From contig NZ_CP147990.1 of the NCBI RefSeq assembly GCF_037902255.1, forward strand, positions 4,590,001 through 4,622,000: a stretch of 32,000 nt of DNA, written 5' to 3'. This document shows positions 1 to 21,330 of this stretch, in pieces; the first letter of the stretch is position 1, and every line of letters begins with the position of its first letter. Under the pieces are notes generated by a model. That model was not told the origin of the DNA, searched no databases, and worked only from the letters and a program-made list of their open reading frames with translations. The DNA is from Candidatus Electrothrix sp. GW3-4 (GTDB taxonomy: Bacteria; Desulfobacterota; Desulfobulbia; Desulfobulbales; Desulfobulbaceae). The position numbers were made by a program, and so were the translations under genes.

Positions 1-413
1 AAGCGGTCGTTATGCCGGTTCAGGGTCAGTTTTGATTTTGCTGTCAGGGTGACCGGGTCCAGGTAGCCGATATAGGAGTTGCGCAGCTGTTCTGCCCGTT
101 TCTCGTTGATGTCCTCGGTTTTGGCAAGGTCATGGAGCAGGGAGATGGCTGCCAGTAGGATGATACTGATGGTGGTGATGCGTTGCTGACCGTCAATGAT
201 GTCAAAGCGTTTGCTGTCGGCAGATTGCAGGACCAGGTAGCCCATGTAATGGCTGGGTTCCTCATCGGTCGTGTGCAGGGCGAGGAAATCCTGCCAGAGG
301 TCGTCCCATTCGTCCGCTGACCAGGAGTAATCGCGCTGAAAGGCCGGTACCCGGTAGAGCAGACCGTTGCCCATGAGTTGGCGGAAGGTGTTGTTGGCGG
401 TGTTGAAGTTCAT
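1..413 (-). CDS. DUF262 (GmrSD N-terminal / ParB-like NTPase fold) domain protein; only the N-terminal ~137 aa are present and the gene continues past the left window edge
   Basis: Absent from the ORF track because it is open at the window edge. My own minus-strand translation from the ATG at 413..411 is stop-free down to position 1: MNFNTANNTFRQLMGNGLLYRVPAFQRDYSWSADEWDDLWQDF...SKRFDIIDGQQRITTISIILLA. The FQRxYxW and DGQQR(I)TT motifs are the DUF262 hallmark. Confidence 0.75.
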   Translation of the reverse strand, partial: MNFNTANNTFRQLMGNGLLYRVPAFQRDYSWSADEWDDLWQDFLALHTTDEEPSHYMGYLVLQSADSKRFDIIDGQQRITTISIILLAAISLLHDLAKTEDINEKRAEQLRNSYIGYLDPVTLTAKSKLTLNRHNDR

Positions 414-443: not shown

Positions 444-2240
444 TTACCAGCTCGCCATTTTAAAGAGCCGACCTTGTTCGTTTTCATCGTGTAGGGTCAG
501 GATAATTTCCTGTTCGCCAAATACTTCTTTGTTTCTGTCGGATTTAGGCGGGAGATCTGAGTCAATCAGGGTAATAATGACCTGTATACCAAGATCGGAA
601 TATCGACGAATAACGTTGAGCAGGTTTTCCTTTTTACGGTTATCAAGGGACTCAAACACACCATCATGAAACACAAAATGCGGGAATTTTTTGTCAAGGT
701 AGGCGCGTAATACTGCAAGATCAAAGGCGGTACATAACAATTTTTTGTATGTTGTTCCTGAATCTGCACTGGTTGTGTTGCCGGATTCATCAAGGATTTC
801 ATCTTTAAACTCTAAATGTCCTTCGCGATTAAGAGCTACATTCAAAAGTGCCTTTCGATCAATAACCTCTTCAACAATTTCATTAAAAAAAAGTCGAATT
901 GAAGAAAATAAGCATGCTGGGTCTGAGTTTTGCCGCTCTACATCAAGCTCAATATCACTTTGTAAATGCTCAAGTTTTTCTTTTAGTCTCCGTAAACTAG
1001 TTCGCAATTCCTGTAGGCGACGCAAAGAGTCTCGTTGACGCTCCAGAGAGGACAGATCTGCTTTGAGCGTTATGAGTTCATTGGAGAATTTTTTGTATTT
1101 GTTAAATACATTTGTTTCATTTAAAAAAGAAAGTGTTTCTGACCGCTGCTTGCCCAACGTATCTAACTCGGCATTGACCTCTTTCAATCTGTCTTCAATT
1201 TCTCTCAGTTCCTCTTGTAGGTAGGCACAGCGTTCATCTGTTATGGCGCGATTGAATGCAATCAGCTGCTGAAAATCTTTTTTTATCTGTCCGGCAAAGA
1301 GAATACCTGACTCTTTAAACAGACGCTCTGCATCATCCGGGTGAAACAGTATCTGCTCTTCCTCTAACGAATCATTTATTTTTTTTTGATTTTTTTGCAA
1401 TGAATAGCACTCTGCATTAAGCGTAGCAATGCGCTCATCAATCATGTCCACTAACTGTTCGGTATGCTCTTTATCTTGAGAGCGAAAGTCGAATGCATCA
1501 AGAAATGCCTGTTTTTTTTCTAGTTCCTTCTGCTTGAGTAGAATCATTCCTTCAACTTTACTAATATCTTCAAGTGACCCACCGAATTCACTTTGGATAA
1601 TTTGTTCTTGTTTCTTTTTATCTTCTATCTGTTTTTCTTTTTCGTAATAAGAGGTGATCTGGTCAGCGTTAAATCCAGTAATATGGGCAAGAAAAGGTTT
1701 CCAGTCAGCGTGTTTCCCCATAAATTTACGCAATTGAAACACATCTCGATAGTCGTCCTGTGAGCGTAACTGATACCCTATACCTTTACGAAAAGTCCAC
1801 GGTTTCAGTGAACGCAAGTCAAGAAGGGCATCCAGAATGCTCAGTGACCTTTCAAAGGGTACATCATGATGGTCCCAGGCATCTTCTGCTAAGTTTACGA
1901 AGTTTTGTTGAGCTATTTCATGCTTTTTAAAACTAATCTTAGTTGCATTTTGTACGCCTCGACGAATCGTAATATACGAACCATCAAGTAGTTCCAGTTC
2001 AAGAAAAAAAATGAATTTTTGAAACTGTTCAAGGTGCTTGAAAAGGAAAAACTTTGGATTTCTCCTGGCAAGGAGGAGAAAATTAAGCAAATGTCCAAGG
2101 GTGGTTTTACCAAGATTATGGGTGTCTTTCTTCTTGTTCTCTGGAAGACGTATTTCTGCCAGAACAACATTGAGTCCAGATTCAAATAGAATTTCCTGGA
2201 AAAGGTTAGGATGGTTGGAATAGAGTTTAGACAGCTTCAT
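444..2240 (-). CDS. Coiled-coil ABC/SMC-like ATPase of an ABC-3C / Lamassu-type system (LmuB/DdmC position; resembles what I recall as the DUF2326 family)
   Basis: 598-aa ORF. The N-terminus MKLSKLYSNHPNLFQEILFESGLNVVLAEI...THNLGKTTL carries a Walker A (GKT). Residues ~200-460 are K/E/Q/L-rich and heptad-like, suggesting a coiled-coil insert. The C-terminus has a signature-like SADSGTTYKK and a Walker B/D-loop HFVFHDGVFESLD. The start overlaps the upstream gene by 14 nt. Confidence 0.8.
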   Translation of the reverse strand: MKLSKLYSNHPNLFQEILFESGLNVVLAEIRLPENKKKDTHNLGKTTLGHLLNFLLLARRNPKFFLFKHLEQFQKFIFFLELELLDGSYITIRRGVQNATKISFKKHEIAQQNFVNLAEDAWDHHDVPFERSLSILDALLDLRSLKPWTFRKGIGYQLRSQDDYRDVFQLRKFMGKHADWKPFLAHITGFNADQITSYYEKEKQIEDKKKQEQIIQSEFGGSLEDISKVEGMILLKQKELEKKQAFLDAFDFRSQDKEHTEQLVDMIDERIATLNAECYSLQKNQKKINDSLEEEQILFHPDDAERLFKESGILFAGQIKKDFQQLIAFNRAITDERCAYLQEELREIEDRLKEVNAELDTLGKQRSETLSFLNETNVFNKYKKFSNELITLKADLSSLERQRDSLRRLQELRTSLRRLKEKLEHLQSDIELDVERQNSDPACLFSSIRLFFNEIVEEVIDRKALLNVALNREGHLEFKDEILDESGNTTSADSGTTYKKLLCTAFDLAVLRAYLDKKFPHFVFHDGVFESLDNRKKENLLNVIRRYSDLGIQVIITLIDSDLPPKSDRNKEVFGEQEIILTLHDENEQGRLFKMASW

Positions 2241-2475
2241 CTGGGCCTACATATTCTATAACATCACTTTTAGAACGATACTCAACTAATCCTAATAGAT
2301 AGAGAAAGCTTAATGCGGGTAAGAACAAAACATCGCCACCAGTAATTTTCTCTTTGGTTTTTCTGCGGAGTTTACCATATTCTTCTATTCGATATTTTTT
2401 GAGATAATCCAGCAGCAATAATGAAACGTTAATCACAGTCCTGTCTGGATGAGAATGTTTAGTAGGTCTCAGCAT
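2227..2475 (-). CDS. Small middle component of the ABC-3C / Lamassu-type cassette (LmuC/DdmB position); function assigned by position only
   Basis: 82 aa from the ATG at 2475, which has GGAG 9 nt upstream. The ORF-track start is a GTG at 2496 with no SD. It overlaps the 3' end of the effector gene by 17 nt and the ATPase start by 14 nt. I recognise no catalytic motif; it is small and predicted helical. Confidence 0.55.
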   Translation of the reverse strand: MLRPTKHSHPDRTVINVSLLLLDYLKKYRIEEYGKLRRKTKEKITGGDVLFLPALSFLYLLGLVEYRSKSDVIEYVGPDEAV

Positions 2476-3418
2476 CTTCCAATTCTCCGATATCACAGTT
2501 CCAATACATATAAAACAGCATAGTACGGGTTAATCGCTTATGGCTTCTCAGAATTGGATCTCGATTAAACAACTGATCAACGAGATATTCCATTACCTGG
2601 TCGAATTCTTGGTAGTCTTTTCTTTTTGCGATTATTTTTAATTGAAATTCATCCGCAATAGATTCATACAATTCGAGAAGATCAATATTTTCAGGAGCTG
2701 CCAAGAAAATACGAATTTCTGCTGTTTCCTTCAGGTACTTTTTACGTTGAGCTTTAGCATATTCAACGCTCATTTGGTTTATTCTATTCTTCTCTTCATA
2801 GCTTATTCGTTGAATCGGTGGATCGTCAATGATATTTGGCAGTGTATTCTTTTGTCGGGCAAGTGCCTGGATAATATCAGATAGATCATCCGGGCTTACG
2901 ATTAACGGTGAATCAACAGGATCAAGATCCGCAAGTCTTGGCACATCCGGAAAGGTCTTGAGCCAGTTTTCAAGCTGCTCCAGTCCGCATAAGTAAATAG
3001 ATTCTTGCTTGATATTACATTGTGTCGAGATGTATTCTCTTATTTCGCTTTCTGCATTTCCCGCTAAGCGCCTATTAGAAAACAGCATATAATGATCAAG
3101 TTGCTTGTTTAAGCGGAGTTTCTTTATGCGGGGGATTTCTTTTGCAAGAACAGAGGTCATGCTCTTGACGCTGTAGAAGTTAGGCTCAGAAAAGTTACGG
3201 TTGTAACCGTTTGTATGCTTGGCCTGAATAATAGTGGTTCCAATCCAAGGAGCTGTTCGGCTTGGATGCAGTTCTGCCGTTCCGACAAATTTAGCATCTC
3301 GACCGCCATCAGGCCCTTTGGCAAATCCCTGCACAGAGATACCAAGTAAACGTTGACATAAGAATACGATTAACTGCTCAAATTGTTCGTCGTTGAGATC
3401 TTCGTATGCGTATTTCAT
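2459..3418 (-). CDS. Effector of the ABC-3C / Lamassu-type cassette: N-terminal Mrr-cat-like PD-(D/E)xK restriction-endonuclease domain plus an all-helical C-terminal adaptor domain (LmuA/DdmA position)
   Basis: 319-aa ORF. The N-terminal 70 aa contain GPDGGRDAKF ... TTIIQAKH, which matches the D...(Q/E)xK arrangement typical of Mrr catalytic domains (GxDGGxD ... vQxK). The C-terminal half is helical and ends ...RTMLFYMYWNCDIGELEDAETY. It is the first gene of three overlapping genes. Confidence 0.75.
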   Translation of the reverse strand: MKYAYEDLNDEQFEQLIVFLCQRLLGISVQGFAKGPDGGRDAKFVGTAELHPSRTAPWIGTTIIQAKHTNGYNRNFSEPNFYSVKSMTSVLAKEIPRIKKLRLNKQLDHYMLFSNRRLAGNAESEIREYISTQCNIKQESIYLCGLEQLENWLKTFPDVPRLADLDPVDSPLIVSPDDLSDIIQALARQKNTLPNIIDDPPIQRISYEEKNRINQMSVEYAKAQRKKYLKETAEIRIFLAAPENIDLLELYESIADEFQLKIIAKRKDYQEFDQVMEYLVDQLFNRDPILRSHKRLTRTMLFYMYWNCDIGELEDAETY

Positions 3419-3424
3419 GGTAGC

Positions 3425-3453
3425 AATCTATCCTATGAGTTCACTACTGTAAA
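3425..3453 (-). promoter_or_regulatory. Candidate sigma70 promoter for the three-gene cassette, positioned to give a leaderless transcript
   Basis: The minus strand reads TTTACA-N17-TAGATT. The -10 hexamer ends 6 nt before the effector ATG at 3418, and there is no SD upstream of that ATG. Hexamer matches are 5/6 and 4/6. Confidence 0.3.
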
Positions 3454-11455: not shown

Positions 11456-13171
11456 TCAAAAAGTTGGTGATGTGACTTTGGCGATTTTGATTTTGTCCAA
11501 AAAATTGTGAAAATGCTCTTTGACAATCAAAATCAGGCCAATCAAGCCTCCGAAGGAGGGTGAAGAGGGATTTTTTCCCTTATTTCTCCGTTTTTTGTAC
11601 GCAGCTGCCCGTATAATATTGAGTGCTGTTGCTTTCATGGTCGCTGCGAAACGAACCGCTTTCATTCCCCGCACCCGAAGATGCTTGATCCCCGTGCGGC
11701 GATCAAGCTGCGACATGGTCGCCTCGACCCCGGCCCGGAACCGATACTTTTCTTTGAATTCATCGGTTCGTTCGTATGCCCTTCTTTGCGCGAGGCGGAC
11801 ATTTTTTTCATTGTATCGGAGATAGCTGAGGTCTTTTTTGCCGGGTTTGACAGGGCAATGGTTGACTCTTGGGCAGGCATCACACCTTTCCGATGAAAAG
11901 GCTATGGTGAACCTGTCTTTTTTCCTGGATTTTTTGACAGGTCGGCATTGTTCAGGACACGAGATGACAAAACCGTTTTCAGAAAACTCAAAATCGGTCA
12001 GAGTGCAGAAGAGACCTTTTTGGCGATCCAGCGTGGGGGCGATCAGATCAACGCCTTTTTGTTTTGCCGCCTCGTGATTGTCATCGCTTCCGTAGAGCGT
12101 ATCAGCTGATATTTCTTCCGGTTTTACGCCACGTTGTTCTGCGGCCTCAAGATACGGTATCAGGGCATCGGCATCACTTTCATGGGCAGCCTGCACATCA
12201 ACATAGGTAATCAGGGAAAGAATTTCAGCATCTTCCTCTGTGCTGTATGTTTCTGCGATTTGCACCTGATATCCCTTGCCTTTATGACCGCTGTATCCGG
12301 CATCGGGATCAGAGGGATTCTGAAGGGAGTCGGAGGGGATATCCTTATTCGGCTTCAGAGTAACACGCAGTTCATCAGTATTTCCGCCCTGCTCTGTGAT
12401 GCATTGTTCTTTCAGAATACGCGTCATGAGCTGATACGAGTCCATAGACGGGATGCTGTGATGAGAGGCGAACTTGTTGATAAAAAAGAAAAGATCGTCA
12501 GCAACCATTTGCAGGGTTTTGGTCGATTCGGATGGTTTGACCATAGAGAAGGCATTTGCCTCTTCTTTTTTCAGGTAGCGATCTCGCAAATCCGGGTCAA
12601 GGGCTTTGAACTCGTTTTTGTGCTGCCGTTTGAGATTGGTCAGGAATTTTTTGATGGTGCCAGTGAAGATCCCGACACGACCGAGGTGCTTCATGTTGGA
12701 AAATATATGAACAGAATCTATACGTTGCAGAGAAGGATCAGCATCGAACGTTTTCATAAGCTCGTCGCCTACAGCCTTGAAGATATCGTCATACAGTCCA
12801 TATTCCGTCATGATAGAGCGCATGGTCCAGATACTTCTTGGACAGACATAGGCTGCTTTATCTGAGTTGCTTGTGATATCAAGGGCATAATGCCATTGTA
12901 TGTTAAAGGCAAACTGCTCGGCTGTTTCTTCGTCTGTCAGATCATGCATATGCTGCAACAACATTGCCCCCATCATGGCAACGAGTTCATTGGTTGGTCG
13001 CCCCATGCCCGTACTGAAATACCGGGTAAGGAGATCAACCGGAAGAATATGACGGACATGATCCCGAAAAATCCCGGCCCATGACTCGTCCAGCATTTTT
13101 CGACGTTTTGGCCCGAGATAATCAAACGGGTCGAACATGTTGATGGTTTTGTGATCTTTGACGTTTAGCAT
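11456..13171 (-). CDS. DDE transposase, IS1182/IS5-superfamily-like
   Basis: 571 aa. It has an N-terminal DUF772-like region (GRPTNELVAMMGAMLLQHMHDLTDEETAEQFAFNIQWHYAL) and candidate DDE residues (IDSVHIFSN; ADTLYGSDDN; RAGVEATMSQL). A Cys-rich insert (CPEQC...CDACPRVNHCP) and the C-terminal ...LRVRGMKAVRFAATMKATALNIIR are typical of IS1182/IS5 transposases. Confidence 0.85.
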   Translation of the reverse strand: MLNVKDHKTINMFDPFDYLGPKRRKMLDESWAGIFRDHVRHILPVDLLTRYFSTGMGRPTNELVAMMGAMLLQHMHDLTDEETAEQFAFNIQWHYALDITSNSDKAAYVCPRSIWTMRSIMTEYGLYDDIFKAVGDELMKTFDADPSLQRIDSVHIFSNMKHLGRVGIFTGTIKKFLTNLKRQHKNEFKALDPDLRDRYLKKEEANAFSMVKPSESTKTLQMVADDLFFFINKFASHHSIPSMDSYQLMTRILKEQCITEQGGNTDELRVTLKPNKDIPSDSLQNPSDPDAGYSGHKGKGYQVQIAETYSTEEDAEILSLITYVDVQAAHESDADALIPYLEAAEQRGVKPEEISADTLYGSDDNHEAAKQKGVDLIAPTLDRQKGLFCTLTDFEFSENGFVISCPEQCRPVKKSRKKDRFTIAFSSERCDACPRVNHCPVKPGKKDLSYLRYNEKNVRLAQRRAYERTDEFKEKYRFRAGVEATMSQLDRRTGIKHLRVRGMKAVRFAATMKATALNIIRAAAYKKRRNKGKNPSSPSFGGLIGLILIVKEHFHNFLDKIKIAKVTSPTF

Positions 13172-13285
13172 AGCTCTCTTGCGTATATATCTGTAATGTT
13201 GACATAGTGTATATCATAACAGCTAGTCTGTAGCAAGAAGAAAATCAATTATATTTAAATAATTTCAGTTGATTATGCAAAAACA

Positions 13286-13305
13286 ACTTTTTGCGAATCC
13301 ATCAA
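13286..13305. repeat. IS terminal inverted repeat (right)
   Basis: ACTTTTTGCGAATCCATCAA; its reverse complement pairs with 11411..11430. Confidence 0.7.
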
Positions 13306-13728
13306 CTTTCCTGATCCGTTCTTTTTTGGGGTGGCCTTATGCGATTGCGGTTTGTTTCGATTACATCCCTGGGTAAAAGGGGAATCGTTTTGCTGAGCTG
13401 CTTCATTCTCGTTCTCCAGGGAGGGAGGCTGATGGGGTGAAGAAACAACGAAAAAATAGATTGGTTCTGGTCCCTGATAACAGGAAGTGCTATATTACAA
13501 GAAGTATATATTGATACGTTCGGATGTCAAGCAATTCGTCGAGTTACCCCGGAGTGAGAACGTCGTCATTCTCTTTTTTTCGGAGAAAAAAGAGGTTCGC
13601 TTGGTATGCATCCGTGATATGGGAAAGAGGAACGTTCCGCAGGGGCACCTTTTACTTTGCAGGGTGATAGCGCATTTTCATCTTGATTTTTTCGATCTTA
13701 ATGTGTTTCATTCTGTTAATAGAATGAA

Positions 13729-13757
13729 TTGACTCTTGTATATCTTAGAATCAGAAT
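13729..13757 (+). promoter_or_regulatory. Candidate sigma70 promoter of the acidic zinc-ribbon protein gene
   Basis: TTGACT (13729..13734) - N17 - CAGAAT (13752..13757), 18 nt upstream of the ATG at 13775. Confidence 0.35.
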
Positions 13758-13774
13758 AACTGTAGGCAAAGATT

Positions 13775-14686
13775 ATGCGCTGTAAATGTGATTACATCAC
13801 TTTTGATCAACTGGAGATATGTCCCAAGTGTAAAAAGGATATATCAAAAATTTCCAAGGCGTTGTCAGGTGTTACATTCAAGGCGCAGATTCCTGATTTT
13901 CTACTGTTAGATGGTGATGAGTCGGAGCCAGACGTAAACGAAGTAGAAACGGACCTGGATGCTTATGACGAAGAGGTTGAAGCGGAAGCTCCATTTGCTG
14001 ACGATATAGATCTGGAAGAGGATGACGAAGAAATTGATTTTTCCTCTGATCATGAAGAAGATGATGCAGAGGAGGGGATTGAGTTTGATCTTTCTCATGA
14101 TGATTCGGAGGAAGCTGCTGATGCTGGTATAGAACTGGCCGTAGATGACGACAGTGGCGATGATGATGGCGGTCTTGACCTTTCGCTTGATGGTGACGAG
14201 GATGATGATGGCGGTCTTGACCTTTCGCTTGATGGTGACGAGGATGATGATGGCGGTCTTGACCTTTCGCTTGATGGTGACGAGGATGATGATGGCGGTC
14301 TTGACCTTTCGCTTGATGGTGACGGTGATGACGGTGCTCTCGACCTTGCTCTTGATAACGGCAGCGATGATCTTGACCTCTCGCTTGATATGGAGAGTGG
14401 CAACAGGAAAGGGGTAGGAGATTTATCAGGCCTGGATGGGTTGGATATTCCAGATCTTTCTTCTTCTGGAGGTGGAGAGGGTGATCTGACCCTTGAAAGT
14501 GATCCTGGCTCCAGTGCTTTGGATGATGACTTGCCGGATTTGGAGATGAGCGGGCTTGACACTCAAGAGTTTGTCCCGCCACCGGATGGAATGGAAGCAA
14601 AGAAGAAGCTCTCTCCAGGCGCGAAGACAGGGACTGCTCTTGATGATTTTGATATCGATTTAGGAGATCTTGGCGACCTTGGTTAA
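13775..14686 (+). CDS. Hyper-acidic repeat protein with an N-terminal zinc-ribbon (architecture reminiscent of the uncharacterised FYDLN_acid-type proteins)
   Basis: 303 aa. The N-terminus MRCKCDYITFDQLEICPKCKKD has CxC-x12-CxxC. The remainder is dominated by D/E/G/L, with four tandem GGLDLSLDGDEDDD units plus degenerate L(D/A)L(S/A)LD copies. The codon-level repeat is in frame. Confidence 0.7.
   Translation: MRCKCDYITFDQLEICPKCKKDISKISKALSGVTFKAQIPDFLLLDGDESEPDVNEVETDLDAYDEEVEAEAPFADDIDLEEDDEEIDFSSDHEEDDAEEGIEFDLSHDDSEEAADAGIELAVDDDSGDDDGGLDLSLDGDEDDDGGLDLSLDGDEDDDGGLDLSLDGDEDDDGGLDLSLDGDGDDGALDLALDNGSDDLDLSLDMESGNRKGVGDLSGLDGLDIPDLSSSGGGEGDLTLESDPGSSALDDDLPDLEMSGLDTQEFVPPPDGMEAKKKLSPGAKTGTALDDFDIDLGDLGDLG
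14168..14335 (+). repeat. 42-bp tandem repeat, 4 copies (3 perfect and 1 diverged in its last 12 nt), inside the CDS
   Basis: The unit is GGCGGTCTTGACCTTTCGCTTGATGGTGACGAGGATGATGAT. Copies at 14168, 14210 and 14252 are identical. The copy at 14294 is identical for 30 nt and then diverges. Degenerate relatives continue to about 14390. Confidence 0.95.
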
Positions 14687-14733: not shown

Positions 14734-14759
14734 TTGCCCACTCAACAAACAATGAGTTG

Positions 14760-14835
<76 letters not shown>

Positions 14836-15674: not shown

Positions 15675-16201
15675 CATATTGAGCCGCAATTAATAATCGC
15701 AGGCGCAGCAATTGATCATGGCTTACCGAATCTTTTGTGCAGGGTGGAGATGAAACCTTTATCCGCCTTAATAGATATCATTTCCAGCGGCGAGGGGCCT
15801 CTTTTTCAGGCCAGATAACAACTTGCTCCCACAACTGAAATGGTTATGAGCAGGTTCTGCCAGGACTTGATGGTCAGGGAAAAAGTCTGTCAGCAAGGTG
15901 TTTATAGGGCGTCCATTGATTATGGATGGTGCCAACAAGATACCCTGGCAATTTTTTCTTGAAGCACTAAGCGTAAGCTCTTCCTGTCCATTCCCACATC
16001 TAAGCTGCAAACGCGTATTCGAACCATCAAGCATGACGTTTGAAGTTCATCTGAGGCATTTAATGTCGGTCATAAGACGTCTCCTCAACCAAGGAAAAGA
16101 CCAGCTAAAACAAAAGAAATAGGTCCCGGTCCTCCGCTCAGCATAACCCCGCCCGTCAAGCTACAACCGAGATGAGACCTTTCATCACTCAGGGAAAAAC
16201 T

Positions 16202-17059
16202 ATGGTAGAAGAAAAGCAATACAGCTGGAATGCAGAAGACTATACCCGCCATTCCTTTGCGCAGCAGGGGTGGGCCAGAGAGCTGATCAGTAAATTGGAT
16301 CTCCAGGGCTATGAAGCTGTGTTAGATATCGGTTGTGGTGATGGCAAGATAACCGCAGAGATCGCTGATCTCCTGCCCGATGGTGAGGTCCTCGGCATAG
16401 ATAGTTCAGCAGACATGTTGGATCTGGCCCGGGAAAAATTTTCCTGGTCAACCCATCCCAACCTTTCTTTCCAGCAACGGGATGCCAGAGAGCTGACCTG
16501 TGAGGCGGAATTTGACATTGTCTTCTCCAATGCTGCCCTGCATTGGCTGCAGGATCATCGTCCGGTACTGACAGGTATAAGCAGGGCCCTGAAGCTGGGC
16601 GGACGTACACTCCTGCAGATGGCCGGAAAAGGGAATGCCGCCTCGCTCCTTGTTATTTTTGATAAAATCATCCAGACAAAAGAATGGCAGCCGTATTTTA
16701 CCGACTTTACCTTCCCCTATGGTTTCTACGGCCCTGAGCTGTATAAAATCTGGCTCAAGGAAGCTGGGCTGCATCCTGTCCGGGTTGAGCTTATTCCCAA
16801 GGATATGTCCTATCCTGATCGGGCCGGATTAGAGGGCTGGATACGTACCACCTGGCAGCCCTATACGGAACGAATTTCTGTTGAGCGCAGAGAAGCCTTT
16901 ATTACAGAGCTTATTGACAGATATCTTGTGGAACACCCCGCAGACAGCGAAGGAGGACAGGTGCATGTGGGTATGGTACGCCTTGAGGTGGAAGCCTGTC
17001 CGGGAAAATATAGAGAGATGAATCTTATTGATCCGCCCAGTCCAGCAGACGTTCCATAG
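16202..17059 (+). CDS. Class I SAM-dependent methyltransferase (trans-aconitate methyltransferase/Tam-like)
   Basis: Motif I is VLDIGCGDGKIT, with a post-I acidic residue (GIDSS) and motif II/III (DIVFSNAALHW; LKLGGR). The ATG at 16202 has AGGGA about 7 nt upstream and is preferred over the ORF-track ATG at 16172. Confidence 0.85.
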   Translation: MVEEKQYSWNAEDYTRHSFAQQGWARELISKLDLQGYEAVLDIGCGDGKITAEIADLLPDGEVLGIDSSADMLDLAREKFSWSTHPNLSFQQRDARELTCEAEFDIVFSNAALHWLQDHRPVLTGISRALKLGGRTLLQMAGKGNAASLLVIFDKIIQTKEWQPYFTDFTFPYGFYGPELYKIWLKEAGLHPVRVELIPKDMSYPDRAGLEGWIRTTWQPYTERISVERREAFITELIDRYLVEHPADSEGGQVHVGMVRLEVEACPGKYREMNLIDPPSPADVP

Positions 17060-17467: not shown

Positions 17468-18268
17468 TTGCTCGTCAAGCATAACCCGGAAACCGCCCGC
17501 TATTCAATAGAAAAATCTTGGAAAAACGTGAAACAGGCTGTCTCATACGATTGCTGGGCCTTTTTTGGCCGGATTTATTGCATCTCCCTGCATGAGCGGG
17601 AAGATCGGAGGGTCATAGCCCGCAAGGCCTTTGCTGCGGTTGGCCTGCAGGATCAGGTAGAATTTGTTCTGGTGGAAAAACATCCTGTCTCCCCGGAGCA
17701 GGGGATCTTTGAATCCCATCTGATCTGCCTGCGTAAGGGCCTCCAGGAAAAGGCCAAGACGATACTCCTCTTTGAGGACGATGTGTTTTTTCAGCGCTTT
17801 GATCCCTACGCCTTAGGTGAGGCGTGTTCTTTTCTGGAACAGGATGCTGACTGGAAGGCCCTGTTTCTCGGCTGTATCACCAGCGGGAGCCAGCGAGCCG
17901 GGAATCGGCATCTCGCCCGGATTCGTTACCGTTGCCTTTCCCACGCCTATGCCGTGCATCAGTCCTTTGCGGAACAGCTCATTGAGGAGCAATGGCGGGG
18001 GATCCCCTATGATATGCTTCTGCAACAGTATAATCGGGAACAGCATAAGTGGCATTTTTATGCCCTTTATCCGCTTTGCGCTTTTCAGGGCCTGGAAGGA
18101 ACGGATAACCAAACTATCCGTATTGATCAGGCCCGGCGGCTCTTCGGGGGCCTGCCCTTTATCCAGAAGATGAACGAGCTCTACCAAAATCATAAGGTAC
18201 CACTCCTGCTCTCCCATGCAGTAAGCCTGCTCTTGCTTGCTCTGCTTGTCTTTTTTCTCTTCAAATGA
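17468..18268 (+). CDS. Glycosyltransferase family 25-like protein with a C-terminal TM anchor
   Basis: 266 aa from a TTG start, which is uncertain (a GTG at 17528 is possible). The pattern RIYCISLHEREDRR ... GIFESHL ... ILLFEDDVFF ... LFLG ... SHAYAV parallels the GT25 (LgtB/Lic2B-like) layout. The C-terminus PLLLSHAVSLLLLALLVFFLFK is a TM helix. The stop overlaps the next gene's start (ATGA). Confidence 0.6.
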   Translation: MLVKHNPETARYSIEKSWKNVKQAVSYDCWAFFGRIYCISLHEREDRRVIARKAFAAVGLQDQVEFVLVEKHPVSPEQGIFESHLICLRKGLQEKAKTILLFEDDVFFQRFDPYALGEACSFLEQDADWKALFLGCITSGSQRAGNRHLARIRYRCLSHAYAVHQSFAEQLIEEQWRGIPYDMLLQQYNREQHKWHFYALYPLCAFQGLEGTDNQTIRIDQARRLFGGLPFIQKMNELYQNHKVPLLLSHAVSLLLLALLVFFLFK

Positions 18269-21200
18269 TCAAATATAGAAATCTCCTTGTTGTTTCCTGT
18301 GCGATTATCGCCTTAACGGTTCTGGGCTTATTGCGTTTACGGATAGATACCGATGTGGTGCGCTCCTTGCCCACGCAGGAGAAGATCATTGCCGATGGAC
18401 TTGAAATCTTTGAACAGCATCCTTTTCATGATCAGATCGCAATCGATATCAGTTTGACGAAGACCGATCCTGATCGTCTGGTGGAAATTGGCAAGGCCCT
18501 GGAAGAACAGCTGAAACAGAGTGACCTTTTTGCGCAAGTGGGTACTGATAGCCTCGGTGCCTTAATTCCTGAGCTGGCCCTGCATGCAGCCAAGCATCTT
18601 CCCTTGCTTTTTACCCAGGAAGAGCTGGAGAAGAAGGTTGCACCTCTCCTGAAATCAGAGCAGATTAGCCAACGTCTCCAGAAACTGTATCAGGAGCTTG
18701 GTGGGATGGAGGGGATCGGACAGGCAGAGTTCATGGGGCTGGACCCCCTCGGGCTTAAAGATCTTGTCCTGGCCCGGATGGCTCCCCTTGCACCCTCGCT
18801 CAACTCCCGATTGTATCAAGGTAGCCTGCTTTCTCAGGACGGACACCATCTCCTGGTCACAGCTCGCCCTAAGGCTTCAGGCACCGACACTGCTTCGGCC
18901 CGGCAAATTTCCCAAGTCCTGACCCAGGCCGAACAAGAGTTTGCCCGGCAATATCCAGATGAGGCGATACAGCTTACCCCAGTGGGTGCCTATCGGGCGG
19001 CCCTGGATAATGAGGACATCATTCGTCATGATGTGCATCTGGCCCTGGTGTTCGCTACCTTGGGAATTGCCCTGCTGCTCTATTTTGCCTTTCCCCGCCC
19101 TCTGACTGGCCTGCTGGCCTTTGTCCCGGCCCTTGCTGGCACCGGCACGGCCCTTTTTGTCTATTCCCTGCTTCATCCCTCTATTTCTATTATGGTGCTG
19201 GGCTTTGGTGGTGCTTTGATTTCTATTACCGTGGATCATGGCATTGCCTACCTTCTCTTTCTGGACCGCCCCCAGGAGACCAAGGGGAAAGAGGCTTCCA
19301 GGGAGGTACGGGCCATTGCCCTGATGGCGGTCGTTACCTCGATCTGTGCCTTTCTCATTCTCAGCAGCAGTGGCTTTCCGGTCTTTGTCCAGCTTGGGCA
19401 ATTCACGGCCTTGGGGATTTTGTTTTCCTATCTCTTTGTCCATACGGTTTTCCCGCAGCTCTTCCCAAGTATGCCTCCTGCGGAGCATAGCCGTTCTCTG
19501 CCACTCCGTCGTTTTGTTGATCTTCTCTATTGCACCGGCAAGCCAGGCGCTATTGTGGCATTACTGCTCTTTATTGGGTTAGCCTTTTTTGCCAAACCGC
19601 AGTTTCATGTAGATCTGAAGAGCATGAATACCATGTCTTCGGAGACTCAGGCTGCAGATGCCCTCTTTGCTCAGGTCTGGGGTAATATCAATGACCGGGT
19701 CATCCTGATGCGCTCTGCTGATTCTCTTGCAGAGCTCCAAAACGGCAATGATCAACTCCTTGTCAAGGCGGAAGAGGATATTGCTCAGGATATCTTGGCT
19801 GCTTCCTTTATCCCATCCATGCTCTTCCCAGGGCAAGAACGGGCAAGGGAAAATTTCAGGGTCTGGCGTACCTTCTGGAATGACGAACGCGTGCAACACG
19901 TCCAGGGAGAGTTTGATAGAATCAGTAAAGAACTCGGTTTTGCACCCACAGCCTTTTCTCCTTTCCTTGTCCAGCTTCAGCTGGCTGAGATCGAGGTCAC
20001 AACCATCCCTGAAAAATTTTATGAGTCCCTGGGGATCAGGAAGAACAGCGAGCACACAGGGTTACTTCAGTTTCTCACGCTCATCCCCGGAAAAAACTAT
20101 ACTGCTCAAGAGGCTGTGCAGCGCTATGGACAGGATGCCAGTTTCTTTGATGCAAACTATTTTACAGAGCGCCTGGCAGAAGTTCTTTTTTCCACCTTTA
20201 CCCGGATGTTGGTGATTATTGCCCTCAGCATCGCCTTTCTCTTGGCCTTGTTCTATCTTGATCTGCGCCAAACCTTGCTTACCCTCTTGTCACCCTTTTT
20301 TGCCTATGTCTGCACCCTGGGTACCCTGCGCCTGATCGGGCATCCTTTGGATATTCCGGCACTCATGCTCTCCATCGTTATCCTGGGCATGGGAGTGGAT
20401 TACTCGGTCTTCTGCGTCCGGGCCCATCAGCGCTATCAGGATATTAGCCATCCCTCCTATGCCTTGGTGCGGACAGCAGTGTTCATGGCAGGCGCATCCA
20501 CCCTGATCGGCTTTGGGGTGCTTTGCTTTGCCAAGCACGCTGTCCTGCGCAGCATTGGTATCACCTCTTTTCTGGGGATCGGCTATTCGCTGCTTGGTAC
20601 CTTCCTGCTTCTGCCGCCCTTGATGGATCGCTTTCTTTTCCCTAGGCAGCAGAGCGGGGCCATGGAGAAGGAAAATATGAACGTGGATGCCTGTGTTCGT
20701 CACCGCTATAGAACCCTGGAGGCCTACACGAGGATGTTTGCCCGCTTTAAATTGCGCTATGATCCCATGTTTGCCGACTTACCGGATATGCTCGTCCGGG
20801 GACAGCAGGGACAGGGGGGGATCAGGACGGTTATTGATATCGGCTGTGGTTACGGGGTACCAGCCTGCTGGTGCCTTGAGCAATACCCAGGTGCTGAGGT
20901 CTTTGGCATTGATCCTGATCCTGAGCGGGTACGCTCTGCCACCATCGCCTTTGCCGGACAAGGTAGGGCTGTCTGCGGCTATGCCCCGGAACTCCCGTCC
21001 ACTCCTGGCCCGGCCGATCTGGTCCTCCTGCTGGATATGTTTCATTACCTGGATGATGAAACCGCAGCAACGGTACTGCGCAAGAGCTTCCAAGCCCTTG
21101 GTGAAAACGGTATCCTGGTAACTCGCTTTGTTATCCGCCCTCCTGGTCGGCTCTCTTGGAGCTGGTATCTGGAAGATTGGCGGATTAGGTCTGGAGGAGG

Positions 21201-21330
21201 TCAAGCCTATTATCGGCCTGCGGACAGGATGGCGGCATTCATGCGCCAAGCTGGCTTTACGGTGGTGTATAATGAGGTGTCAGCGGTGAACCGGGAGCTG
21301 GTCTGGATGGTGGGGCGAAAAGGGAGCTGA
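18265..21330 (+). CDS. RND/MMPL-type predicted exporter (COG4258-like) fused in frame to a C-terminal class I SAM-dependent methyltransferase
   Basis: 1021 aa. It has RND topology: TM1, a ~230-aa loop, a 5-TM bundle, another TM, a ~200-aa loop and a second 5-TM bundle (residues ~1-790). This is followed by a soluble ~220-aa domain with motif I VIDIGCGYGVPA, a post-I GIDPD, and LLLDMFHYL. There is no stop codon between the two parts. Confidence 0.85.
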   Translation: MIKYRNLLVVSCAIIALTVLGLLRLRIDTDVVRSLPTQEKIIADGLEIFEQHPFHDQIAIDISLTKTDPDRLVEIGKALEEQLKQSDLFAQVGTDSLGALIPELALHAAKHLPLLFTQEELEKKVAPLLKSEQISQRLQKLYQELGGMEGIGQAEFMGLDPLGLKDLVLARMAPLAPSLNSRLYQGSLLSQDGHHLLVTARPKASGTDTASARQISQVLTQAEQEFARQYPDEAIQLTPVGAYRAALDNEDIIRHDVHLALVFATLGIALLLYFAFPRPLTGLLAFVPALAGTGTALFVYSLLHPSISIMVLGFGGALISITVDHGIAYLLFLDRPQETKGKEASREVRAIALMAVVTSICAFLILSSSGFPVFVQLGQFTALGILFSYLFVHTVFPQLFPSMPPAEHSRSLPLRRFVDLLYCTGKPGAIVALLLFIGLAFFAKPQFHVDLKSMNTMSSETQAADALFAQVWGNINDRVILMRSADSLAELQNGNDQLLVKAEEDIAQDILAASFIPSMLFPGQERARENFRVWRTFWNDERVQHVQGEFDRISKELGFAPTAFSPFLVQLQLAEIEVTTIPEKFYESLGIRKNSEHTGLLQFLTLIPGKNYTAQEAVQRYGQDASFFDANYFTERLAEVLFSTFTRMLVIIALSIAFLLALFYLDLRQTLLTLLSPFFAYVCTLGTLRLIGHPLDIPALMLSIVILGMGVDYSVFCVRAHQRYQDISHPSYALVRTAVFMAGASTLIGFGVLCFAKHAVLRSIGITSFLGIGYSLLGTFLLLPPLMDRFLFPRQQSGAMEKENMNVDACVRHRYRTLEAYTRMFARFKLRYDPMFADLPDMLVRGQQGQGGIRTVIDIGCGYGVPACWCLEQYPGAEVFGIDPDPERVRSATIAFAGQGRAVCGYAPELPSTPGPADLVLLLDMFHYLDDETAATVLRKSFQALGENGILVTRFVIRPPGRLSWSWYLEDWRIRSGGGQAYYRPADRMAAFMRQAGFTVVYNEVSAVNRELVWMVGRKGS

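Follow-up and report, generated by a model that had tools for sequence, protein, structure and literature searches.

Lamassu, DdmABC and systems of the ABC-three-component (ABC-3C) type are treated as one superfamily in reviews and structural papers. According to Pfam, and to Krishnan et al. (2020) as represented in the papers that quote that study, an ABC-3C locus combines an effector bearing one of the domains CTD1-12, a middle component from one of the families MC1-8 encoded between the other two, and a coiled-coil ABC ATPase encoded third. Two sub-families have been delineated, the first Rad50/Mre11-like, with CTD1-5, MC1 and a large LmuB, and the second diverged, with CTD6-CTD12, MC2-MC8 and a smaller LmuB (Li et al., 2025). 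Structural and mechanistic studies cover Cap4-CTD7-MC3 Lamassu from Vibrio cholerae and Salmonella and one type I system, in which one LmuA effector is held through its CTD by two copies of the LmuB ATPase and one of the LmuC middle component until DNA ends trigger its release, upon which LmuA tetramerises into an active nuclease. A system with an Mrr effector, Lamassu-Mrr of Escherichia coli O150:H5 SE15, has been validated as well; it is abortive and needs ATPase, effector and LmuC (Millman et al., 2022). Here we analyse a three-gene cassette in Candidatus Electrothrix sp. GW3-4, a cable bacterium, which lies within a 32,000-nucleotide (nt) stretch of contig NZ_CP147990.1 (positions 4,590,001 to 4,622,000; assembly GCF_037902255.1), referred to throughout as the window. 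With a probability that we put at about 0.8, this cassette is a Lamassu (ABC-3C) defence operon that is intact, was acquired horizontally and belongs to the short, diverged sub-family.

Each of the three products matches a family of the ABC-3C set, with Pfam scores well over the curated cut-offs. The LmuA-like effector, a protein of 319 amino acids (aa) encoded on the minus strand at 2459..3418, matches CTD12 (PF20279) across the entire profile (1-144 of 144; E = 2.3e-59, 200.5 bits against a cut-off of 25). The LmuC-like middle component of 82 aa (2227..2475, minus strand) matches MC8 (PF20295; E = 2.2e-19, 69.8 bits, cut-off 25) and also MC6 (E = 3e-7). The third gene (444..2240, minus strand) encodes an LmuB-like, SMC/Rad50-type ABC ATPase of 598 aa belonging to the DUF2326/YydD family; its C-terminus matches DUF2326 (PF10088; E = 1.9e-30, 106 bits), and its homologues carry the JGI label 'YydD (DUF2326 family)'. 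Among PADLOC models the ATPase matches PDC-M68B (1.2e-55) and LmuB (4.1e-9 over residues 30-557) and no other ABC-ATPase defence family, while its NCBIfam matches are marginal only, to Rad50 and to archaeal SMC-related models. PDC-M68 calls for two components, and neither the effector nor MC8 matches a PDC-M68 model at E <= 0.01. Residues 1-160 of the effector match PDC-S73 (5.5e-12), together with Aga models that contain a restriction endonuclease (REase) domain. CTD12, MC8 and an ATPase of 598 aa fit the definition given by Li et al. (2025), by which the cassette counts as a Lamassu of the diverged sub-family; published naming would make it Lamassu Mrr-CTD12-MC8, its LmuB being of the DUF2326/YydD type.

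These matches bear out a first-pass annotation of the window, made from the sequence alone, which had called the cassette Lamassu/ABC-3C and had named an absence of significant profile hits as the result that would speak against that call. The same annotation had judged the family to be known rather than new. Published work indeed equates ABC-3C with Lamassu, and the cassette belongs to a catalogued family whose proteins are already so annotated in public databases: the exact effector (100% identical) is held at NCBI as 'ABC-three component system protein [Candidatus Electrothrix sp. GW3-4]', and the exact ATPase sequence, from the same organism, as 'DUF2326 domain-containing protein'. The layout originally described, three co-directional minus-strand genes that overlap by 17 nt (effector and middle gene, 2459-2475) and 14 nt (middle gene and ATPase, 2227-2240), is exact provided that the middle protein begins at its 82-aa start. 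A length of 82-89 aa had been allowed for this protein, and both starts exist, a GTG opening an 89-aa open reading frame (ORF) at 2227-2496 and an ATG at 2475 that gives 82 aa. The shorter form, beginning MLRPTKH, is favoured by gene calls on identical contigs, by the PGAP annotation in E. coli and by an alignment of 17 homologues.

The effector had been read as Mrr-like from the motif pair GPDGGRD...IIQAKH, which is present. A search of 1.84 billion cluster representatives returned 961 relatives, and in 106 full-length homologues (29-71% identity) G26, D37, D41, K67, K210, Y251 and C308 are invariant, with G35, G39, Q65 (at least 90%), E94, N115 and R116 nearly so. In an AlphaFold2 (AF2) model with a predicted local distance difference test (pLDDT) value of 93.7, the nuclease domain (residues 1 to ~160; 2939..3418, minus strand) has the core topology alpha-beta-beta-beta-alpha-beta, with helices at 10-25 and 90-103 and strands at 42-47, 59-67 and 109-114. 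D41 lies where the second core strand begins, and Q65-x-K67 lies on strand three, a placement that we take for the Q-x-K (Mrr-type) version of the PD-(D/E)xK arrangement. The structural neighbours of the effector are proteins of the restriction endonuclease fold: a Foldseek search of the PDB placed Avs4 first (E = 0.022, prob 0.98), followed by R.BspD6I, Can2, MUS81-EME1 and XPF, and a search of viral models recovered several proteins named 'Restriction endonuclease' (E = 7.6e-5 to 2.5e-2, root-mean-square deviation 4-4.7 Å, ~150 columns).

The same N-terminal domain also occurs fused to an Avs-like STAND NTPase in proteins of 754 aa that resemble PADLOC PDC-S73 (two loci). In one of these, an Mrr_cat+nSTAND3 protein (L113), it aligns to effector residues 3-161 and scores 27.7 bits against Pfam Mrr_cat, over the cut-off. 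Avs4 and the PDC-S73-like nSTAND3-Mrr proteins resemble our effector in having a homologous Mrr-like nuclease domain at the N-terminus, and differ from it in being single polypeptides in which the nuclease is placed under a fused STAND NTPase sensor, with neither a separate SMC-like ATPase nor a middle component. Collectively, the invariant residues, the modelled topology and the fold neighbours predict that the effector N-domain is a divergent Mrr-like nuclease. The remainder of the protein, originally noted as a helical C-terminal module, is CTD12 (residues 168-311; 2486..2917, minus strand), which is all-helical in the model from 176 to 306 and has a conserved C-terminal motif, YMYxNCDIG. 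It is presumed to act as a docking and oligomerisation module.

Searches of the PDB with the single sequences of all three proteins gave coiled-coil noise only, as did profile searches. Sequence alone cannot link the cassette to the solved Lamassu complexes, and a comparison of folds was therefore needed. The ATPase was modelled with AlphaFold2, the input being an alignment in which 81 homologues from databases (30-94% identity) were brought together. The model (mean pLDDT 88) consists of a split ABC head, with an N-terminal part of residues 1 to ~190 (nt 1671-2240) and a C-terminal part of residues 444-598 (nt 447-911), and, between them, an antiparallel coiled coil of 248 residues (192-439, nt 924-1667; helices 192-293 and 318-439), the apex of which is of lower confidence; all of these coordinates are on the minus strand. 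This agrees with the Walker A motif (G44-K45-T46), the helical insert of ~250 aa and the signature and Walker B motifs near the C-terminus (G495 and D526) that the first-pass annotation had picked out. There is no CxxC hook. Foldseek against the PDB ranked Bacillus subtilis YydD first, from the integrative YydD-YydB model 9a6c (E = 5.8e-23, TM score 0.57). Ranks 2-5 were taken by the Lamassu LmuB chains 9uxh_F, 9hqu_A/B and 9hqx_B (E = 1.6e-14 to 2.1e-12), followed from rank 6 by SMC heads, the best of them 5xei at 7.8e-12 and the others weaker, and from rank 10 by Rad50/SbcC at 2e-9 and weaker. Judged by the predicted fold, LmuB is the closest solved defence protein to this ATPase.

The YydD-YydB model, obtained by integrative modelling with cross-linking mass spectrometry, bears on the effector too. 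YydB, a protein of 481 aa, is among the fold matches of our effector, the match being a poor one (TM score 0.29, E = 0.12), and the title of the 9a6c entry indicates that ATPase and effector are in physical contact in the DUF2326/YydD branch. A published defence phenotype for YydD-YydB was not found in the literature.

The nucleotide site of the ATPase is unusual. Its motifs are D39-T-H41-N-L-G44-K45-T46, a signature-like G495, F522-x-x-H525-D526-G527, E530, D533 and Q553. Across the 81 sequences the P-loop reads [N/D]-[S/T]-H-[D/N]-L-G-K-[T/S] and in no case has the glycine that opens GxxxxGK[ST]; His41 is present in 81/81, and Lys45 and Asp526 are invariant. The Walker B motif is F-V-[Y/F]-H-D526, followed by Asp or Gly and never by Glu, with Asp in the sister clade. 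Positions 527 and 530 co-vary without exception, D pairing with S/A in 47/81 and G/S with E/D in 34/81, in a sample that comprises essentially two clades, so that the covariation reflects few independent events; positions 39 and 42 mostly swap N and D likewise, with some exceptions. The pattern suggests that the second carboxylate of the site has been shifted by one helical turn. With such a site, the ATPase may either hydrolyse ATP or only bind it.

Of the characterised systems, Cap4-CTD7-MC3 Lamassu (V. cholerae DdmABC/LmuACB and Salmonella enterica LmuACB; 9hqu, 9hqx, 9uxh) has the same gene order as the Electrothrix cassette, an SMC/Rad50-like ATPase of ~600 aa that likewise lacks a zinc hook, and an effector made up of an N-terminal nuclease and a helical CTD, and in the literature it falls into the same sub-family (CTD6-12 with MC2-8). 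It has a Cap4 nuclease, however, whereas ours is of the Mrr-like PD-QxK type, it combines CTD7 with MC3 instead of CTD12 with MC8, and there is no detectable sequence similarity between our proteins and the solved chains, profiles included. Lamassu-Mrr of SE15 shares with our cassette the three-gene ABC-3C architecture and the nuclease signature G-x-D-x-G-R-D...Q-x-K-H (GDKGRD...YQCKH in SE15, GPDGGRD...IQAKH in Electrothrix), whereas its CTD6, its MC2 of 168 aa and its LmuB of 620 aa with a canonical GESDTGKS P-loop stand against CTD12, an MC8 of 82 aa and a DUF2326 protein here. By BLASTP and hhalign, similarity between the two LmuA proteins is confined to ~60 residues around the catalytic motif. 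The remark in the first-pass annotation that an Mrr-effector variant from this kind of host was not known to have been characterised needs to be set beside the SE15 system, an Mrr-effector Lamassu that has been validated and that belongs to a different sub-family (CTD6-MC2); for the CTD12-MC8 combination no experimental report was found in the literature.

Several observations weigh against the assignment of the cassette to Lamassu, or against carrying over what is known from other members. The Pfam Mrr_cat model (PF04471) scores the effector below its gathering threshold (17.6 against 21 bits, E = 0.0043), just as it does the validated Lamassu-Mrr effector of SE15 (19.8 bits, E = 9e-4), and the effector has no match to PADLOC PDC-M68A. 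CTD12 has no detectable similarity to the CTD6 of SE15 Lamassu-Mrr, and MC8 none to the validated MC2 LmuC of the same strain (hhalign probability 0.2%); MC8 would be the LmuC equivalent by virtue of its position, size and Pfam classification. The solved Lamassu chains were not found with profile hidden Markov models of the ATPase, the effector or MC8, and in the Foldseek ranking the margin of LmuB over SMC heads is one to two orders of magnitude only. Short LmuB proteins have been described as having a Walker A motif of Gx4GK[S/T] and a Walker B motif of hhhhD[Q/S/T/E] (Haudiquet et al.), a descriptive consensus rather than a formal membership criterion, from which our ATPase departs in having Asp for the first glycine of the P-loop and Gly527 after D526. 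A reported phenotype for a CTD12-MC8-DUF2326 member was not found in the literature. Finally, any mechanism proposed for the cassette is transferred from Cap4-CTD7-MC3 Lamassu across sequence similarity that is undetectable.

Transferred in this way, the mechanism would run as follows. An ATPase dimer and the 82-aa MC8 would jointly hold one effector monomer inactive through CTD12. The complex would sense a phage or plasmid by its DNA ends or its aberrant replication structures, and ATP-dependent engagement of the heads would release the effector. Released effectors would then oligomerise through CTD12, which would bring their Mrr-like nuclease domains together, and the paired domains would cut DNA indiscriminately, so that the infected cell is killed or arrested (abortive infection). 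There is an outside chance that the DUF2326 branch departs from the characterised Lamassu mechanism, or that the cassette is coupled to the GmrSD gene next to it, which is described below. A mechanism of its own is conceivable for the DUF2326/YydD branch because of its remodelled nucleotide site, the constraint on its sequence and its minimal MC8 of 82 aa. Were this so, the ATPase might be a switch that binds ATP but hydrolyses it slowly or not at all, and might respond to another trigger, one that is universally conserved, and in Electrothrix the cassette might be wired to GmrSD as an escalation layer.

The assignment to Lamassu is further supported by the way in which the cassette is conserved. 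A survey of one genome per species identified 242 stretches that encode relatives, the best 80 of which were compared. The order effector-MC8-ATPase is kept in ~76 of these 80, with the same small overlaps, the others being disrupted copies or loci at contig ends; it is kept also in ~30 IMG/VR loci. The hosts of the best 80 loci cover at least eight phyla, being Alpha-, Beta-, Gamma- and Deltaproteobacteria, Bacteroidota, Planctomycetota, Acidobacteriota, Verrucomicrobiota, Cyanobacteria, Nitrospirota and Negativicutes, and across these loci the effector has identities of 68-78%, MC8 of 62-76% and the ATPase of 63-75%. Non-synonymous divergence (pN) of the ATPase is 0.15-0.23 against a synonymous divergence (pS) of 0.77-0.97, which is saturated; the saturation of synonymous sites and the low pN therefore indicate an old spread under strong purifying selection. 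Identities of 62-78% over at least eight phyla with saturated synonymous sites amount to unusually strong constraint for a defence system. The effector search gathered 2837 protein clusters, and with homologues in the thousands and pN far below pS the cassette ORFs are real genes rather than chance ORFs.

Within this conserved frame the effector domain is exchanged. On IMG/VR contigs, proteins of 253 aa that join an HNH domain to CTD12 lie beside the same MC8 and DUF2326 genes (two loci), and in three further loci the same pair accompanies CTD12-only ORFs of 179-197 aa with no effector domain. Swapping of effector domains on a constant CTD12 is the modular exchange expected of Lamassu/ABC-3C, and HNH and effector-less clades have been reported for short Lamassu (Haudiquet et al.).

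The distribution of the cassette is patchy and mobile, and it is found near other defence genes. In 61 of 71 loci it has a lower GC content than its flanks, and in the Electrothrix window the values are 39.2% for the cassette and 49.5% for everything else. Of 5426 complete E. coli genomes, only 8 have the cassette. In one of these, WS3294A (NZ_CP035819.1; locus L003, 10001-16596), it sits in an island resembling an integrative and conjugative element (ICE), with an integrase pseudogene, RepA helicase, TraJ, TrbJ, TrbL and IS3, and directly adjoins a RecQ/DprA pair that matches PsyrTA (PsyrT 6.6e-278, PsyrA 1.6e-136). Relatives were found in 42 plasmid records, 26 of them conjugative, and on 36 IMG/VR contigs; effector homologues were not found in GenBank phage genomes.

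A cassette with this distribution could in principle be mainly an addiction or stabilisation module of mobile elements, acting by killing of the toxin-antitoxin type or by plasmid exclusion and not in phage defence. The 26 conjugative plasmids among the 42 records (20 of them from Agrobacterium), the ICE-like island in E. coli and the failure to find homologues in GenBank phage genomes are what such a module would lead one to expect, and DdmABC was itself first found as an anti-plasmid module. Related Lamassu systems, however, protect against phages and plasmids alike, and activity against plasmids is one expression of that defence function, not a separate mechanism. Moreover, the Electrothrix cassette is chromosomal, and mobility genes were not found in the flanks seen. 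We consider a principal role in addiction unlikely, and continue to regard the cassette as a defence operon.

The first-pass annotation had taken the cassette for the only locus of conflict type in the window, and in this it was mistaken. A GmrSD (DUF262-DUF1524) type IV restriction gene of the HEC-06 kind follows the ATPase gene on that strand, starting 30 nt past its stop, and its 5' part occupies 1..413 (minus strand) before the window edge clips it at residue 137. The fragment has a DGQQR motif and matches Pfam GmrSD_N (1.2e-23) and PADLOC HEC-06 (2.4e-60), and the full protein of 549 aa on an identical contig (L001:11064-12713) has both GmrSD_N and GmrSD_C and matches HEC-06 at 1.4e-223. 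HEC-06 is a single-gene defence system with experimental support, and cassette and GmrSD together are a small defence island of two systems. The GC content of the GmrSD fragment is 55.7% against 39.2% for the cassette, a gap which suggests that the two were acquired separately. Ca. E. scaldis has the same context, with a HAD hydrolase upstream of the cassette and GmrSD and a metallophosphoesterase downstream, whereas a metagenomic cassette that is 85% identical has other surroundings, which do not include GmrSD. A protein of 697 aa (L001:12838-14931, beyond the window) comes after GmrSD in both Electrothrix genomes; it has a C-terminal calcineurin-like phosphoesterase domain, an N-terminal region of ~430 residues with no assigned domain, and no PADLOC match.

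The proximity of the two systems raises the question of whether they form one functional unit, with GmrSD, as a type IV enzyme, cutting modified phage DNA and so making the ends that trigger Lamassu. They lie on the same strand 30 nt apart with no terminator-like site found in the gap, the pairing is kept in Ca. E. scaldis, and in the literature Lamassu is a sensor of DNA ends for which a role in escalating the responses of other systems has been proposed. Yet a GmrSD homologue accompanies the cassette in none of the 80 other genome loci, the 16-point difference in GC suggests separate acquisition and HEC-06 works as a single-gene system; we consider a single functional unit quite unlikely.

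It is very unlikely that the Electrothrix cassette is a decaying, non-functional remnant. In a second assembly of the locus (L002, Logan SRR28154590, 3427-5220) the ATPase is spread over three or four ORFs, and its active site is non-canonical, both of which might be taken as signs of decay. However, L002 differs by four single-base gaps without a single substitution over 4200 nt, which is the signature of assembly error, and we have rejected a pseudogene reading of it in favour of assembly or homopolymer error as the most likely source of the breaks. All three ORFs of the window are full length and colinear with their homologues, the orthologues in Ca. E. scaldis are intact at 92-94% identity, and the unusual ATPase motifs are invariant throughout the family, so that they are features of it rather than decay.

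Scarcely credible, finally, is a housekeeping complex for DNA repair or chromosome maintenance, a divergent SbcCD/Rad50-Mre11 or RecN analogue with its nuclease, for although the ATPase fold matches Rad50, SbcC and SMC heads and the weak NCBIfam matches fall in the same direction, YydD and LmuB are structurally closer, all three proteins belong to conflict-system Pfam families, HNH can take the place of the effector domain, or the domain can be lost, in a way that repair would not tolerate, and the cassette, in place of the conserved synteny that the first-pass annotation had named as the mark of a housekeeping gene, is present in only 8 of 5426 E. coli genomes, varies in context among close relatives, is carried by plasmids and integrative elements and has a GC content 10 points under that of its host. 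Rad50-Mre11/SbcCD, the proposed evolutionary source of Lamassu, does share with the cassette a nuclease partner and an ABC head whose two parts are separated by an antiparallel coiled coil; the coiled coil of our ATPase is much shorter and has no zinc hook, its Foldseek matches to this group are weaker than those to LmuB, and its partner is a PD-(D/E)xK nuclease in a patchy, mobile cassette rather than the Mre11 phosphoesterase.

Upstream of the cassette, a promoter-like site, TTTACA-17-TAGATT (3425..3453, minus strand), agrees with the consensus at 9 of 12 positions and ends 7 nt upstream of the effector ATG, within the 102-nt gap that follows the HAD gene. The region contains 7 sites of this kind where shuffled sequence leads one to expect 8.1, and this one is statistically indistinguishable from a chance match; its position alone is suggestive. 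The remaining genes of the window are housekeeping genes, among them those for BamA, an acyltransferase, TelA, RecO, SurA and PlsY. An insertion sequence (IS) element at 11456-13171 (minus strand) encodes a 571-aa DDE transposase with DUF772, DDE_Tnp_1 and DDE_Tnp_1_6 domains. It is followed by an ORF of 303 aa (13775-14686, plus strand) that has no Pfam or PADLOC match and lies partly inside a patch of low GC (41% for 13001-14000), just upstream of tRNA-Phe (14759-14834, plus strand); this region may be a further small insertion at a tRNA. Two PADLOC 'mad2' matches, at 16172-17059 (5e-25) and 18265-21330 (1.5e-14), both on the plus strand, were rejected as defence genes, being generic SAM-dependent methyltransferase domains; the second lies in a protein of 1021 aa that consists of an MMPL transporter region and a C-terminal methyltransferase. 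An HD protein in the window was likewise rejected as Cas3 or Cas10, its weak matches to these being explained by the generic HD domain.

The cassette leaves the current understanding of Lamassu in place, and is an ordinary member of a known family. It is a well-supported example, from an unusual host, of a widespread Lamassu sub-family that combines Mrr-CTD12-MC8 with a DUF2326 ATPase, for which the literature yields neither an experiment nor a solved structure beyond the integrative YydD-YydB model. Being compact and extremely conserved, and having a non-canonical ATPase site, this sub-family is a reasonable candidate for testing how general the sequestration-and-release mechanism of Lamassu is. 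For cable bacteria, the locus documents an island of Lamassu and a HEC-06-type GmrSD, in which abortive infection would act inside a multicellular filament.

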